Shown here: positions 8,791-45,341 of the stretch, piece by piece
Numbering within the stretch: position 1 is the first letter of the stretch
Layout: each line of letters starts with the position of its first letter
NCBI GenBank assembly: GCA_951406725.2
Contig: OX597816.1
Span: 99,200,001-99,264,000, forward strand
DNA length: 64,000 nucleotides
Reading direction: 5' to 3'
Source: Octopus vulgaris
Taxonomy: Eukaryota
Notes under the pieces: model-generated
The model's database searches: none
Told to the model about the DNA's origin: nothing
Seen by the model: only the letters and a program-made list of their open reading frames with translations
Position numbers and translations under genes: made by a program

Positions 8791-8904
8791 ATACAAGCAT
8801 TTTGTGGGAACGTGAGGCAGAGACAGTCTCCTCGCCTCACCCAACCTGTAACCCGACCACATCTGTCACATCATTAAACAACCTCAGTTGCATTCACTGC
8901 TTTC

Positions 8905-9795
8905 AGTCGCTCCTCTCCTGCTCTCCTAATCTCCCTCTCCTGCTCTCCCTCTCCTGCTTTCCCTCTCCTGATCTCCCTCTCTCCCTCTCTCCCTCTCTCC
9001 CTCTCTCCTTCTCTCCTGATCTCCTTCTCTCCTGATCTCCTTCTCTCCTGATCTCCTTCTCTCCTGATCTCCTTCTCTCCTGATCTCTCTCTCTCCTGAT
9101 TTCCCTCTCTCCTGATCTCCCTCTTTCCTGATCTCCCTCTCTCCTGATCTCCCTCTCTCCTGATCTCCCTCTCTCCTGATCGCCCTCTCTCCTGATCGCC
9201 CTCTCTCCTGATCGCCCTCTCTCCTGATCGCCCTCTCTCCTGATCGCCCTCTCTCCTGATCACCCTCTCTCCTGCTCTCCCTCTCCTGCTCTCCCTCTCT
9301 CCTGATCTCCTGATCGCCCTCTCTCCTGATCGCTCTCTCTCTTTCTCTCCGTCTCTCCTGATCTCCCTCTCTCCTGCTCCCTCTCTCCTGATCTCTTTCC
9401 TGCTCTCCTGATCTCCCTCTCCTGATCTCCTGATCTCCCTCTCCTACTCTCCTGATCTCCTGCTCTCCCTCTCTCCTGATCGCCCTCTCTCCTGCTCTCC
9501 CTCTCTCCTGATCTCCCTCGCTCATGCTCTCCCTCTCTCTTTCTCTCCCGGTCTCCCTCTCCTGCTCTCCCTCTCTCTTTCTTTCCCGCTCTCTATTTCT
9601 CTCCCTCTCTCTTTCTCTCCGTCTCTCCTGATCACCCTCTCTCCTGCTCTCCCTCTCTCCTGATCGCCCTTTCTCTTGCTCTCCCTCTACCCTGCTCTCC
9701 CTCTCTCCTGCTCTCCCTTTCTCCTGATCGCCCTCTCTTCTGATTGCCCTCCCTGTCTCTCTCTTCCTCTCTCTCTCTTCCTCCCCTCTCTCCTC
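8905..9795. repeat. Polypyrimidine 16-bp minisatellite (CTCTCTCCTGATC[T/G]CC)n
   Basis: Consecutive CGCCCTCTCTCCTGAT units at 9181-9260 and degenerate units on both flanks. This explains the REGDQERGRSGE ORFs. Confidence 0.95.
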
Positions 9796-11671: not shown

Positions 11672-14600
11672 CTAGCAGAGGTACCTGGCGTTGCCCGGTT
11701 ACATTCAATTGAAGAATTAGACTTTTCTGTTATATATATAATGGATACACACACACATATAAGTATATTAATATAAATACATGAAAGTACATGAAGTTTG
11801 TTAAAAAAAAAGGGGGGATCATGTATATACCTCCTGGCTGTTGAGATTATAACACCTAGTTGTAAACAATGTTCCTTGTTTTTCCTTGTGGAGCAAATAG
11901 AAAAAGGCTTCTTTTGGTTCCTACTCTTAAGCAGCCAACATACAGTTACCCATGCGAGAAGCAGGGCTATTCCAAGAAAAGACCAGCTACAGCGAGGGTT
12001 TGACCCTGAGATTTGTTAATGGACATGGCAAAGCTGACACGAAGGTGGGGTTTGCAGTCTTCTGAATGTAAATGGAATTTCTGCTCCTGATGGAGTAAGA
12101 GGAATTCTTGGAATAAAGACGTCATCACTTTTTCCACATCCAGAAAGAATGATCGCCTCGATAACGTGTGACATCATTTTCTTTATCACCAGTCTCTTAG
12201 CGGTTCCAGATTGCGGAGTAGCATTACAGGAGTTCCAACTTTAAGTGCTAATATGTGTGGAGGTAGTCCAGGAGGCTCCAGTGAATTGAGAAATTCAGGA
12301 GGATAGTTCAGAACTTCATTTATATCTGGAATTGTATTAACAGACTTGTAAGTGTGTATAGTGTCGGGAAGAGAATGCATTAGCTGTTGATTAATTTTGT
12401 TAACAGCGACGTTTTTTGGAGCTAATATTGCTCTTTCACACAGCCAATTATGATTTTGGTAGTTTTTTGTGAAGTTGGGAAAGACTTTGTTTTTGGGGTC
12501 ATCTACAGAATTAACAACAGAGGAAAATGACCACGCTTCCATTTGTCCTGCAGCATCGAGAGGCATCTTGCCTTCACCAAGTGTGAAAATGTCCTGTGCA
12601 AACTTTGTGCATTTTGTCGCCGTGTAGCTGAGCTCTCATGTTAGTGGTGAGACTGAGGATTGTAACATGATGCCACAGAGTAGAGGACTGTAGGCATGCT
12701 TGGATTTCATCTGCTCTAGTGCCTTTCGGAATGACAGGAAGAGTTTGCCTCAAATCACCTGACAACAGAAGCGTTACACCCCCCCATTGGAGCCTGACAG
12801 TCTCGGATGTCTTTCAGGGCTCTATCCAATGCTTCCAAAGCTCCCTTGTGAGCCATAGTGTACTCATCCCAGACAATTAGATGACACATTTTAAGTACTC
12901 GTCCCTGATCTGAGCTTTTGTTGATGTTGCATGAAGGCATTTCGGATGCTGCTAAATTGAGAGGAGTTTAAAAGTTGAGTGTGCTGTCCTGCCACCGGGT
13001 AACAAAGTAACTGCAATGCCAGAGGAGGCTATGCTGCCTAACTTCTGCAAAGAGAAGCTTTGTAATAAATGTTTTTCCTGTCCCCCCCAGGAGCATCGAG
13101 GAAGAAGATTCGTCCCTCGCGTTGACGTACGCTGTTAAGAATAGTTATGTAGACCTGCAGCTGATCCGGAAGTAACTTAGGCTCATTTTCAACAATGTAC
13201 TTTGAAAGCGCTTGAGTGTCGTAGGTTGTTTCACGAATGACAGCAGTGGGAAGGCTATTTGACCCAGACCTGAATGCTTGTGGCAGGCCATACATCGACA
13301 ATTCATTTCCGCCCAGTTTAGCAATTCTGTCTTCAATGTCAATGAGTGTTTTGTTATAGATTTCATTGCTGATACCCTCCATGTCAGAATAGAGCAGTTG
13401 AGCTTGGCGCTGAAAGTCTTCAGCCAGGTCTCTATATTCGAGCCATAGAGTGGCCGGATCACACAGTTCGCATGCCTGTAGTAATACTGCAAATAGTGCC
13501 CTGAGACTTTTAGGTGATTGTGATAAAGCAGCCTCTCCTAAAGTTGCATCCCATTGTGCACCATCTTCTGACAGACCTTGTCGATAGCAGGCTTCTCTGT
13601 ATGCTGTGCAGACATGTCCATGAACGGATTTTAGGGCCTGGAAAGACGTTGGCCCTATGACCTCATGCTGTAGTAGACGAAGGTAGAAGCACCCTTGTTG
13701 AGTGGGATGCAGTGTATACTCACCCAAGGCAAGTGTGAAACTTCATGCCAGGGTATCCATGAACATTTTGATCTGCTTTCCGTGGGGCCCATTTTTTTCC
13801 ATTCCAAGTGTAGTACGATGGATCCATTCGCTCAAGGTTTGAGCGAATGGATCTACTTGACAAAGCTTGAAGAATGCAGTGAGTGTACTATCCCTTGGTT
13901 CCTCTGCCAACAGAGAAGCATTAGCATCGGTGAAGTACACTATTTGACCATTTTCCAGGTGCACTGCAAGCTGTTGAATGGCGGGGTGTCGTTGGTGAAT
14001 TGGAAAGCCAAAGATACGCCAGAAAGCCTCGTTGCTACTCTTGTACCGTCCCATCTGATAATGCGTCACTTCATTCTGGCAGTATTCTTGTTGAAGTCCA
14101 AACATTGCAGCGTCAGATCCCTTGTTTAAATATTTACATATTTGCAAACGTACTTGATGGATTTAACAGAGTTGCAAAACTCAACGTTGATGTGGGCATT
14201 GAAAGTCTTTGACAGGAGTGGGCAGTATGGAACAATCCATCTATTATCAATACCGTGCTGTCCGATAGTTGCTGGAAATCTTTTTGAACATATGCTGTCC
14301 TTCAAGCATGGTGAGTTTATGTTGAATCCACGCCCACATGGACCATGTACCATGTTTACTTTAACTATTTCGTATAGCTCTTTTGTCTAAAGCTGGATCA
14401 GGAAACTCTGCAGAGATTATGTTGTCGATGTCATTGGAATTGATCTTCACTGAGATCCAAAGCAGAATATGAGCACGTGGAAGGCCCCTTTTTTGCCACT
14501 CGATTGTGTACATGTCACATTGTATGGGCTCAAAATGTATCACAAACTGGAATTGTAGGCCCGTCTCTCGCAATTTCGATCAATTGAATCTTGTCCTCCC

Positions 14601-20901: not shown

Positions 20902-22435
20902 ACTTAGATATGTTTCGACCAAAGATTGGTCCAGGTCATGTCCAACTTAATAGCACCACCTTATAAGATTATCTAAATCCTGCCTGTTTAAGTCAAATTT
21001 TGTTTATGGTCCATTCGAGCAGTGAGTTCTTGTTGAGTGAGTTATATACAGGTATGAGTGGCTTATCCGGTATTCCTTGAAGAAATCTGTCCACACTCTG
21101 TTTAATGTTGATGGGATCCTTTTCCTCTTTGATCTGTTTCGGGACAATGTTAAACAGGGCAGGGCCTGTCGAGGAAAAGAAATTGTGTTGCAGTGTACCT
21201 ATATGCTGTGATCCTGAATTGGGCAGGGGACGTATGGCCCGTGGCCCCAGCCTTGGATGAACCTTGAAACTAATGTTCAGGTCGTTTGGGTAAAGTTGGC
21301 GGTATATTCTCCATATCGTACAAATGATATACCGCTCGAGGCGGCGCTGGAGAGAGTAGAGTTCCAAGGCTTTAAGGCGGTCCCAATAATCGAGAGCAGT
21401 CATGCCTTCAATTCGTTTAGTGAGTGCCCTCTGCGGTGACTCAATACTCCAGATGTTTTGTCTTGTATGGGGAGACCACAGTGGGCAGCAGTATTCGAGT
21501 TGTGGCCGTACAAAGGAGGAGAAAAGTGGTATGATGACACCTTGTTCTCTAGACCGGAAGGTTCTTAAGATCCAGGAGCCCATCCTACGAGCTATATCGA
21601 CCTTATTGTTGATGTGGGCACTTCAACTGAGATTGTCATCAACAATTACGCCCAGGTCTCTGATATTGTTAGAGGCTGTGAGCGGTTCCCCTGAAGGAAG
21701 AGAGTATGGCTGTTTTAGTGTGGACTTTCTTCCAAAATGCATCAGCTCAAATTTTCCCTCGTTCAGTTGCATTTTGTTTTTGTCTGCCCATTGACATCAT
21801 ATAGATTAGAGTGGAGTTGAGTTCGGTCTGCGTCTTCATTGATGATTTGCTGGAGCTTAGTGTCAACAGCAAATATTTTCACTTTCCAGTGATGTACGAC
21901 ACTGGAAAGGTCATTTATGTAAATTATAAAGAGGAGCGGGCCCAAGACAGTCCCGTGAGGGACACCGCTGGTGACTTTTGCTGGGCTTGAGTGGACTCCA
22001 TCGGCTACAACATGTTATGTTCTATTCGGCAGGAAATACTTAATCCAGGGTAGAAGTTTTCCACGGATTCCAACATTTGCTAATTTTGAGAGTAGGATAT
22101 TATGCTCAACCCTGTCGAACGCTTTACTGAAGTCAAGATATATGACATCAGAGTTCGAACCTGTTTCCAAGGCTTTAAGTATATCTTCAATGTGGTGTAA
22201 GAGCTGTGTTAGACAATCCCTGCCACAACAAAAGCCATGCTAATTTGCATTTAGGAGTTTGTGGGCCTCCAGGAAGTCAGCTATCCTTGATATTAACACT
22301 TTCAAACACTTTAATGATGTGGGAGGTGAGTGAGATTGGGTGATAGTTGACAGCGAGATATCTGTTTCCCTGTTTGAAAACCGGGATGACAGACTGCGAT
22401 AGAAGCTATTTCGGTATATAACCTGAGTCTAAAGA
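20901..22435 (-). mobile_element. 5'-truncated CR1-like LINE (decayed RT plus 3' end)
   Basis: Motifs: VIPVFKQG...NYHPISLTSHIIKVFE, YLDFSKAFDRV, SGVPHGTVLGPLLFIIYINDL, KIFAVDTKL (mutated FADD), FVRPQLEYCCPLWSP, NKNSLLEW. Stops and frameshifts are present, and the 3' end abuts a TA microsatellite. Confidence 0.9.
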
Positions 22436-34308: not shown

Positions 34309-34447
34309 GCGCATATATATATATATATTTGTGTGTGTGTGTGTTATGTATATGTGCATATATATATATATACATATATATATATAATAATAATAAATGC
34401 AAATGCATTAAATACTATAAAATGTACACGTAGGAGACACACAAGGA

Positions 34448-34563
34448 CCCCAATTCTTCATCAGTTATCGACCAAAGATACTAATATCAGTTTCGTGCCT
34501 TTAACGATAAGACTGAAAACATCATGTATCGGCGGCACTCGCAAAAGTTGCGGAAAATTAGGG
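34448..34563 (-). ncRNA. Putative permuted, doubly pseudoknotted hammerhead-like ribozyme (copy A), in an approximately 34390-34970 repeat
   Basis: Minus strand: CCCUAAUUUU ccgcaacuuuugcga GUGCC gcc GAUAC a UGAUG uuu UCAGUC^ UUAUCG uuaaa GGCAC GAAACUGA UAUUA GUAUC uuuggu CGAUAA CUGAUGA AGAAUUGGGG. All core nucleotides are present and stems I and III pair. Confidence 0.75.
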
Positions 34564-35175
34564 CTCGAACAAACAAGAGAATATGGGGTGGGCGTACGAA
34601 AGTAAACAAATGCAATTTGGAGACGATAGACGAAGGCACAATAACTACAACTTTTCGGCCAAACACAAGAATGATGGGTAACGCCTAGAAGAAATCGTCA
34701 ATGGGTATAAGAAGAGAAAATGTTGACCAGCGGGCTATGTGTCGAGTGGTGAAAAGCCAGAGATGGGAAAATTAGTCAAGTGTCACGTGTGGGCAGTAGA
34801 CAGACGGGAAGGAGGATGAGAAGAGGGGTAGAGAGAGAGAGATCAGGGGAAGGAAGGGAGAAAGTCTACAATTAAGAGTGAGAAGACGAGTGGGAGAGAG
34901 GAAGTAGGGATATTTGAAAAGGAATAGGACGACGAGAGAGAAAGAAAGAAGATGGAGTCGCAAAAAAATATAAAAACATACTGCTGTATAAATAAATACA
35001 CATACATATATTCATACATACACACACACATATGCACCACGAAGGCTCCACTTCGAAGTCACTATTACCTCACGCGTACAAGTTAGATAAACTTGTACTC
35101 TAAAAAGTTGTGTAAGGTTTCAGTCTAATGTTAAATAGCTTTTGTATGTACCTGTACATAGAAGCAAACATTAAG

Positions 35176-41538: not shown

Positions 41539-41986
41539 ATTGTACTGTTGCAAATGCATACACTGCATTTATTCATGTCACTGATTAATTTGCGCAGAAA
41601 AATCATTAGTACGAGAACATCTCATCTTTGCCCATTGAAAACCTATCTAAAATAAAGTTTCTATACGATCGCAGTAGCGGTCCGAAATTGCAGCGTTAAT
41701 CTCCTCAAATAAAGCTCGCTCTTGTTAAAACAAGCATATTAATTTAACGACAAGCATATTACTTTAAAACAAGCATATTAATTTAATATGCTTGTTTTAA
41801 TAAGAGCGAGCTTTATTTGGGGAGATTAAAGCTGCAATTTCGGACCGCTGCTGCGATCGTGTAGAAAGTTTATTTTAGATAGGTTTCCAATGGGCAAAGA
41901 TGAAATGTTCTTATACTAATGATTTTTCTGCGCAAATTCATCAGTGACATGAATATATGCAGTGTATGCATTTGCAACAGAACAAT
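41539..41986. repeat. Approximately 450-bp fold-back palindrome (MITE-like)
   Basis: Arms of about 200 bp are reverse complements, for example CTGTTGCAAATGCATACACTGCAT / ATGCAGTGTATGCATTTGCAACAG. The centre is AAAACAAGCATATTAA-T-TTAATATGCTTGTTTT. Confidence 0.95.
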
Positions 41987-44844: not shown

Positions 44845-44845
<1 letters not shown>

Positions 44846-45254
44846 TAATAAATAAAACATATGCATATATACATACATATATGTACGTAACTACCTCTAC
44901 ATATACATGCATATATGGGTACAGGACACCAAAAAAACGTCGAACACAATGAGCAACGAAAACATAAACACAAAACCAAGGAAATGGACATTTTTCTTAG
45001 ACAACGAAAAAATAGAGTACAGGACATACAAAACAAGGAAAATTCCCCTTCTTCAGTCGCCTTTGTTTCATCTACTCCACGTTTCGAAGGTCAAGGCGAT
45101 ACATGACTTTAATGAAACTTTCCTTCCCGCGAAATTCAAATTAAATAAAATTCGAGATTTTTTTGCGGAGGGGTAAAAATAGTAACAAAAACAGGACAGT
45201 AACGACAGTACAAAATATAAACAGTAAAATACAGGACACGGAGAATAACAGTAA

Positions 45255-45260
<6 letters not shown>
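44845..45260 (-). mobile_element. Non-coding interspersed repeat between (TA)n tracts, hosting hammerhead-like copy B (PLE-derived, inferred)
   Basis: Sharp boundaries at the microsatellites, strand-biased composition, and the ribozyme-like motif inside. Confidence 0.55.
45045..45173 (-). ncRNA. Putative permuted, doubly pseudoknotted hammerhead-like ribozyme (copy B)
   Basis: Minus strand: CCCCU ccgc...gcgg GAAGG aaa GUUUCAUU aaag UCAUGUA^ UCGCCUU ga CCUUC GAAACGUGG agua GAUGAAAC a AAGGCGA CUGAAGA AGGGG. The topology is the same as copy A with different stem sequences. Confidence 0.78.

Positions 45261-45341
<81 letters not shown>

Follow-up and report, generated by a model that had tools for sequence, protein, structure and literature searches.

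A predicted permuted hammerhead ribozyme with a four-way junction in stem II, carried by non-coding Penelope-like repeats of the octopus genome

Introduction

The numbering of the hammerhead core and the role of its G10.1-C11.1 pair are established knowledge. Hammerheads of types I-III share one circular order of three blocks, C-G-S, in which block C holds CUGAnGA, block G holds GAAA and block S holds the cleavage site. Two non-circular permutations are on record (Eckert et al., 2023; PMC10085705), namely type SGC (HRIMA-1 and its variants), which was found only in metatranscriptomes, and type CSG, known from two metagenomic sequences; natural hammerheads of both types cleave in vitro. In the sections of that paper available to us, stem II of type SGC directly pairs blocks G and C, type CSG likewise has a direct stem II, the blocks are assumed to be uninterruptible, and the search descriptor requires stem II to lie directly between blocks G and C. 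The pseudoknot-containing hammerhead (PMC11300833) resembles the fold described below in that additional helices and a pseudoknot surround a short stem II, but there the stem II loop makes the pseudoknot, G10.1-C11.1 closes that short stem, and the available text makes no mention of a permuted order.

In animals, hammerheads are described from non-LTR retrozymes and Penelope-like elements (PMC7229834, PMC4209133, bioRxiv 10.64898/2026.07.22.740005). According to the accessible parts of these sources, they are type I or minimal hammerheads in units of 150-450 bp, often with a short stem III that needs dimers, and the 2026 retrozyme preprint (bioRxiv 10.64898/2026.07.22.740005) searched for type I motifs only. 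Naiads were reported to be without canonical hammerheads in the text available of Craig et al., 2021 (PMC8557442), which leaves eight 'HHR_half_core' cases unexplained, Naiad_Ovul among them. The same text gives 5' truncation, partial tandems, inverted copies and a tail as hallmarks of Penelope-like elements (PMC8557442).

In the available portions of the mostly open literature searched, including PMC8557442, PMC4209133, PMC7229834, PMC13725137, PMC10162972, PMC3088659, PMC11300833, PMC6154101, PMC6765202, bioRxiv 10.64898/2026.07.22.740005 and bioRxiv 10.64898/2026.09.16.752053, we found no earlier report of SGC or CSG hammerheads in animal genomes or in Naiads. Nor did this literature yield a natural hammerhead with helices between A9 and G10.1, a comparison that has Weinberg 2015, cited for extra-helix hammerheads, outside it. 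Here, we analyze two divergent repeats, copies A and B, in a 64-kb stretch of Octopus vulgaris DNA (the window), and the families to which they belong.

Results

Architecture of copy B

The original prediction described copy B as a permuted hammerhead with a given set of helices, their order, a core and a GUA triplet. Every arm was found at its minus-strand place and pairs as predicted. The features are as follows.

45045..45173, minus strand: copy B, predicted type-SGC hammerhead with a four-way junction in stem II (arms located, pairing checked, shuffles run)
45173-45169 / 45049-45045, minus strand: helix IIa, 5 bp; 5' arm 45169..45173, 3' arm directly after A9
45127..45168, minus strand: hairpin X, arms 45168-45165 / 45130-45127, 4 bp
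45126-45122 / 45090-45086, minus strand: helix Y, 5 bp; 5' arm 45122..45126, putative functional stem II
45126, minus strand: G, putative equivalent of G10.1, paired with C11.1 (45086)
45118-45111 / 45072-45065, minus strand: helix J (the GUUUCAUU helix), 8 bp, linking stems II (Y) and I at their distal ends; putative role after the interaction helix of PMC10085705
45106-45101 / 45082-45077, minus strand: stem III, 6 bp
45099-45093 / 45063-45057, minus strand: stem I, 7 bp
45093..45106, minus strand: block S, with the stem III 5' arm, GUA triplet, predicted scissile bond and stem I 5' arm
between 45100 (H17 of GUA) and 45099, minus strand: predicted scissile bond
45077..45090, minus strand: block G, with the Y 3' arm, GAAA (G12 at 45085) and stem III 3' arm
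45045..45063, minus strand: block C, with the stem I 3' arm, CUGAAGA core (45056-45050) and IIa 3' arm
34448..34563, minus strand: copy A ribozyme of the same architecture, H17 at 34511, C3 at 34464; the closing pair of X is mutated

The core elements CUGAnGA, GAAA and NUH each adjoin their own stem, as in a hammerhead. Their order, however, is cleavage site, GAAA, CUGAnGA (S-G-C) and not the circular C-G-S of types I-III; judged from sequence, the blocks of copy B are those of type SGC, the non-circular permutation of PMC10085705, with two predicted pseudoknots. The bases before GAAA pair with the upstream strand of Y, and those after A9 pair with a strand further upstream to give IIa. Hairpin X is flush against both IIa and Y, with zero unpaired bases between them. 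We infer a layout in which Y acts as stem II, IIa and X create a four-way junction by their insertion between A9 and G10.1, and J provides the interaction helix of stems I and II. The type-SGC assignment and the inserted junction go beyond what had been named for this locus.

Two details of the original prediction were revised. It had made the 8-bp GUUUCAUU helix part of stem III, a placement that we dropped in favor of the interaction helix J. It had also called the 3-nt linker after Y the same in A and B; the length is shared and the sequence differs. The linker between stems I and II is short, as in type SGC (2 nt in B, 5 nt in A).

Chance controls on the fold

We built a descriptor of the whole architecture (stems I and III, Y, IIa and X), graded in tiers. 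Within the window it matched only copy B, at all tiers and with 35 bp, and copy A. A set of 3516 dinucleotide shuffles of the window, searched on both strands, gave 127 matches at any tier, 10 of them full-tier and the best with 32 bp. None of the 3516 shuffles thus attained the 35 bp of copy B, in agreement with the claim that such a fold is hard to obtain by chance. Among the loci listed that match the core pattern in foreign sequences, none of 119 from metagenomes exceeded the lowest tier, and none of 120 from viruses passed any tier; the viral matches listed look like one coding motif.

Nested folding, which cannot form the two crossing helices (pseudoknots) of the fold, lends the structure of copy B no support, with an MFE z of -1.08; out of the six helices it recovered IIa, X, III and the 8-bp one. 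An Rfam scan of the window returned no hammerhead among the 150 matches listed of 231, which were microsatellite-driven miRNA-type and other weak matches.

Repeat families A and B

Both copies lie in repeats:

44845..45261, minus strand: 5'-truncated copy of family B, a non-coding Penelope-like unit ending in (TA)n; 91-93% identity to other copies over 45261-44825
34390..34983, minus strand: older copy of family A; 75-78% identity to other copies

A first look gave 2754 candidates for family B and 673 for family A. Forty B candidates were scored at 96-100% identity over the ribozyme region. B copies end at a common 3' position, some 250 nt beyond the predicted cut, and their 5' ends vary. The 30 closest carry a microsatellite at the 3' end (28 copies), a 3' tail (5), a partial tandem (8) or an inverted partial copy (3), and 27 of them have an intact core. 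Copies of family A (81-89%) are older than those of B; its consensus has an 11-bp IIa, a 6-bp X and a 5-bp Y. The core is intact in 17 of 30 A copies and diverges by 5.0%, little less than the 8.3% of the rest, which suggests that most genomic copies decay.

The units are about 0.8 kb long (832-875 nt) and hold no ORF. With their 5' truncation, partial tandems, inverted copies, tail and microsatellite targets, they have the anatomy of non-autonomous Penelope-like elements. Subfamily B3 includes a dimer whose 836-nt unit is repeated head to tail and which has two full-tier ribozymes, as well as a trimer recognized by 832-nt spacing, so that at least two tandem units each carry a ribozyme, as in non-LTR retrozymes.

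Two further observations concern these units. After the tail, both B and A units contain a GT...AG stretch with branch-point-like and pyrimidine-rich signals, which resembles the intron of the Penelope 5' UTR; no spliced joint at this guessed intron was seen in contigs of four runs guessed to be RNA. At one locus, an inverted duplication begins exactly at the predicted cut and overlaps via both stem I arms, as fold-back priming would give.

Genome-wide spread and covariation

The genome (2.8 Gb, 227 contigs) was searched with patterns, and the reversed patterns served as controls. The core pattern with a spacer of 23-25 gave 4072 matches versus 16 in the control, and a spacer of 10-22 gave 273 versus 61. 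At a spacer of 26-40 there was no signal (85 versus 83). A further pattern gave 3155 matches versus 2. Among the first 30 position-ordered genomic matches, 9 reached the full tier, 3 the middle tier and 18 none; 10 of the 30 start inside the ribozyme.

From 192 distinct instances, we hand-grouped about 140 into 13 subfamilies, truncated and singleton instances being left out. From alignments made on sequence alone we derived a consensus for each subfamily, and 10 of the 13 can be parsed into I, III, Y, IIa and X, with differing helix sequences; B2, F and G do not parse into the fold. The pairings and the core, which the original prediction expected to hold in family consensuses, are thus retained in these ten. 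The cleavage triplet is GUA, GUC or AUA across subfamilies, and hairpin X has 4-11 bp of differing sequence in those other than B.

For a covariation test, helix columns were taken from subfamily B alone and applied to five related subfamilies. The 175 cells comprise 25 two-sided compensatory changes, 15 one-sided changes that keep the pair, 110 unchanged pairs, 23 broken pairs and 2 gaps. Stems I and III show covariation, as expected of a hammerhead. Two compensatory pairs in Y distinguish A from A2. Together, the parsing of 10 of 13 consensuses and the 25 compensatory cells in 175 argue for selection on the permuted fold in more than one repeat family, as had been proposed. An eight-sequence MAFFT alignment across families was out of register and was not used.

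The junction was examined separately by shuffling the region upstream of stem III and counting how often the observed pairing of Y, IIa and X was attained. It was attained in 0 of 1000 shuffles in each of A, B3, C and D, and in 1, 12 and 19 of 1000 in E, B and E2, respectively. Counts were insignificant for N (306), N2 (188) and B2 (90, mis-parsed), each of 1000, and A2, F and G fell short of the full tier in this control. By these counts, and with this strict descriptor, six or seven subfamilies give the junction good support, and the Naiad-type ones give it weak support.

All ten parsed consensuses have 0 bp of direct stem II between blocks G and C, and the fold is therefore no plain member of type SGC, although it would work like one. 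In all ten, Y opens with a G-C pair (its C fixed by the search anchor in most), and the G paired with C11.1 sits on strand Y, away from A9. The first pair of IIa is U-A in eight and A-U in two. Helix J has 4-8 bp across consensuses and corresponds to the type-SGC interaction helix; its placement differs from that of the Eckert type because the J partner comes after Y.

The fold in Naiad 3' UTRs

A 3' UTR motif of the Naiad_Ovul/Naiad_Obim type occurs 273 times in the octopus genome (0 in the control) and has the S-G-C junction fold. Among 30 loci with a Naiad C-terminus, 15 have the motif downstream, on the sense strand and within a 1.5-kb flank. One RT fragment upstream of a Naiad-type motif matches RVT_1 (E 1.3e-5, below the curated cut-off).

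Published Naiad consensuses were read by eye for part of the 54 (7 of 59 supplement parts; 60 of 81 matches), to which the following statements are limited. Eight 3' UTRs have the S-G-C order and the same junction with unrelated helix sequences, and seven matches have the C-S-G order, in which stem II is direct and an interaction helix is present:

S-G-C with junction: Naiad_Ovul and _Obim; Acropora _Aacu, _Anas and _Amil (_Amil assigned by file order)
S-G-C with junction, continued: Morbakka Naiad-2, Pomphorhynchus _Plae, Clytia Naiad-3
C-S-G: Nippostrongylus Naiad-1, -2 and -3 and _Hpol (all four by header), two of Pristionchus (by order), and one of _Asuum/_Ptep

Naiad_Esco and _Smim read as S-G-C with stems I and III, and stem II was not made out. 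The motif was not seen in the 3' ends of 1_Chem, 2_Chem, 1_Movir, Dcar, Omin, Adux, 1_Skow and 1_Dst, of which the Dcar, Omin, Adux and 1_Dst consensuses are marked incomplete. The nematode consensuses read here correspond to the type-CSG form. Since SGC and CSG are circular permutations of each other, the two forms may share one non-canonical ribozyme ancestor.

The expectation that longer copies would lead to a Penelope-like RT/GIY-YIG element was borne out in one respect, in that the fold lies in Naiad 3' UTRs; a coding element with A or B sequence was not found. From sequence comparison, the fold appears to be a Naiad type of ribozyme and may be the one that Naiads were reported to lack. 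As a separate observation, in the consensus text available, Naiad-1_Chem, -2_Chem, -1_Skow and -2_Skow have no hammerhead, and members of a family have different 3' UTR segments conserved among them, which may represent a further structured RNA.

Search for a mobilizing protein

Searches of the genome for GIY-YIG and Naiad RT did not turn up a coding element whose UTR is A- or B-like. Naiad fragments were absent from the top 60 A and B loci, and families A and B, without an ORF, are not autonomous Naiads, which would have an ORF with an N-terminal GIY-YIG and an RT ahead of the UTR. An RT upstream of the UTR was found in one case, the separate Naiad family with the shared fold, known from the RT fragment and the C-terminus. 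A and B resemble the Naiad UTR in fold only, and the Naiads of the octopus genome are broken remnants.

Intact, young Neptune-type ORFs of 781 and 753 aa are present in many copies, with an RT, a C-terminal GIY-YIG and an upstream ORF. The permuted motif is absent from the UTR of the intact Neptune-type elements themselves. These elements are candidates for the source of the protein that mobilizes B copies. B-like copies beside Neptune-type or Naiad ORFs are mostly separate insertions; Neptune fragments occur in 5 of 120 loci matching the motif pattern versus 0 of 30 mostly random loci, a difference that is at most suggestive. At one locus, a single hint, an inverted B-like partial tandem is joined without a microsatellite to a 5'-truncated Neptune-type ORF, as if in one insertion.

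By eye, a minimal hammerhead of type I and canonical order lies in the Neptune-type 3' UTR, on the sense strand and 3' of the GIY-YIG ORF, and another of the same type and order lies in a separate repeat upstream of the B3 dimer. On this reading by eye, canonical and permuted hammerheads would coexist in the octopus genome.

5' ends of copies and RNA contigs

We scored 5' boundaries in the first 100 position-ordered matches of the 4072-match pattern. Twenty-seven of the 100 copies start in the interval from 0 to +14 relative to the predicted cut, the majority of them at +5 to +11. No copy starts at -14 to -1; the upstream 15-nt bins hold 2, 2, 4, 4 and 3 starts, and 57 copies extend to the edge of the stretch examined. 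In the held-out part, fetched after the pattern had been noticed, 17 of 70 copies start at 0 to +14. With a downstream-only anchor, scored by eye in a sample that overlaps the first 100 copies, 17 of 100 start at -1 to +13, 7 (four distinct junctions) at +14 to +38 and 1 at -24 to -2.

This pile-up just 3' of the predicted bond is a possible footprint of cleavage in vivo, and its distribution is compatible with an RT that copies the 3' cleavage product, a few bases going missing where the insert is joined. Alternatively, starts at +5 to +11 might stem from an RT that stalls at helix Y. Of four runs guessed to be RNA, three have contigs that read through the predicted cut; a head-to-tail joint seen in contigs of such runs can also be explained by genomic tandems and was not taken as evidence.

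Discussion

Copy B is probably a self-cleaving S-G-C hammerhead with a four-way junction, carried by a non-autonomous, Penelope-like and retrozyme-like unit of about 0.8 kb whose tandem transcripts would be cleaved and then copied by an RT. This explanation draws on sequence, covariation, repeat anatomy and the fold in Naiad 3' UTRs, from which we infer the steps of transcription, cleavage and copying. The predicted backbone would exit the core after A9, form IIa with an upstream strand, pass through hairpin X and re-enter as G10.1 on Y, so that stem II is one arm of a perfect four-way junction and helix J ties stems I and II. Tandem copies would be transcribed, and the transcripts cut after the NUH triplet into unit-length RNAs, possibly ligated into circles. 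A Penelope-like RT/GIY-YIG protein would copy these RNAs back into (TA)n sites, and copying of the 3' cleavage product would give inserts that start just past the cut.

Since a precedent for helices inserted between A9 and G10.1 of a natural hammerhead was not found in the literature searched, the A9/G10.1 site could be distorted by the junction. It is conceivable, albeit unlikely, that the core is active while IIa, X and Y are a switch or scaffold, and that cleavage proceeds via a refolded form, with either a short direct stem II and one extra base after A9 or a pairing of two tandem units. In the text available of PMC4209133, Penelope-like hammerheads often place a single base between positions 9 and 10.1 and function as dimers, and a 1-nt bulge after A9 would allow B, B3, E, E2 and D a direct stem II of 4 bp, rich in wobble pairs. 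However, A, A2, C, N and N2 allow the same bulged stem no more than 1-2 bp, and, in the consensuses read by eye, the coral, jellyfish and acanthocephalan Naiads lack a G-C at the bulged register whereas Y, IIa and X persist.

We consider it very unlikely that the fold is a conserved, non-cleaving RNA element descended from a hammerhead, such as a binding site for the RT/endonuclease, with the 5' ends piled up by RT stalling at the pseudoknot. The starts at +5 to +11 do run into the 3' arm of Y, which spans +9 to +13, and contigs of runs guessed to be RNA do span the predicted cut, as this reading would have it. Nevertheless, few starts fall in the helices that an RT would meet first (+14 to +38), the distribution ends at the predicted bond, and all catalytic positions together with an NUH triplet (GUA, GUC or AUA) are kept across unrelated subfamilies. 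Lastly, it is extremely unlikely that the AT-rich repeats pair by chance and that a flexible descriptor and the relatedness of copies inflate the result: although a loose descriptor with minimal stem lengths is attained at full tier by 35-526 of 1000 shuffled upstream regions, and the MFE z of copy B is only -1.08, this reading is contradicted by the window shuffles (0 of 3516 equal the score of copy B), the junction control, the foreign loci, the fixed-column covariation, and a layout common to unrelated subfamilies and to Naiads of other phyla.

Compared with type SGC, the predicted self-cleaving octopus fold has 0 bp of direct pairing and places IIa and X between A9 and G10.1. With type CSG, as described in the available text, it shares the cyclic block order and the interaction helix, whereas the ends of the octopus form are opened in the added helix after A9. 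The carriers resemble Naiads, as far as PMC8557442 was accessible, in their (TA)n targets, partial tandems, inverted 5'-truncated copies and 30-40 bp tail. Like animal retrozymes and Penelope-like hammerheads, in the parts of PMC7229834, PMC4209133 and bioRxiv 10.64898/2026.07.22.740005 at hand, they are non-coding tandem units with one ribozyme per unit and a Penelope-like tie; in contrast to these, they are 832-875 nt long, with a stem III of 4-6 bp and a pseudoknotted core, and are not type I hammerheads.

More broadly, it is likely that non-circularly permuted hammerheads are native to and ancient in Naiads across animal phyla. They would share one topology and occur in two forms, of which nematodes have CSG, and cnidarians, an acanthocephalan and cephalopods have S-G-C with an A9-G10.1 four-way junction. 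The latter form would be new to the literature searched, active in vivo, and multiplied in the genome to thousands of copies, with the cut recorded in their 5' ends. If true, non-circularly permuted ribozymes would move from uncultured RNA circles into animal genomes, in thousands of copies. Naiads, among the most abundant Penelope-like elements, would have seemed hammerhead-free because searches assumed the canonical order, with the half-cores as a trace. The CUGAnGA block and the stem II strand would not need to be contiguous, which would offer a new natural scaffold for structural work and engineering, and the pile-up of insert ends at the predicted cut would make the role of Penelope-like hammerheads in retrotransposition directly testable.

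Other features of the window

The window is rich in microsatellites, which swamp the repeat finder. Minus-strand ORF fragments at 12186-14162, which we take to be Helitron-like, include a match to the Pif1 2B domain (E 1.7e-12). A minus-strand fragment at 20993-21794 presumably resembles the C-terminus of a LINE reverse transcriptase, and had no Pfam match. An inverted repeat at 41539-41986 is MITE-like, with 209-nt arms that are 93% complementary and a 30-nt spacer, and a tandem array of a 16-nt CT-rich unit lies at 8822-9543.
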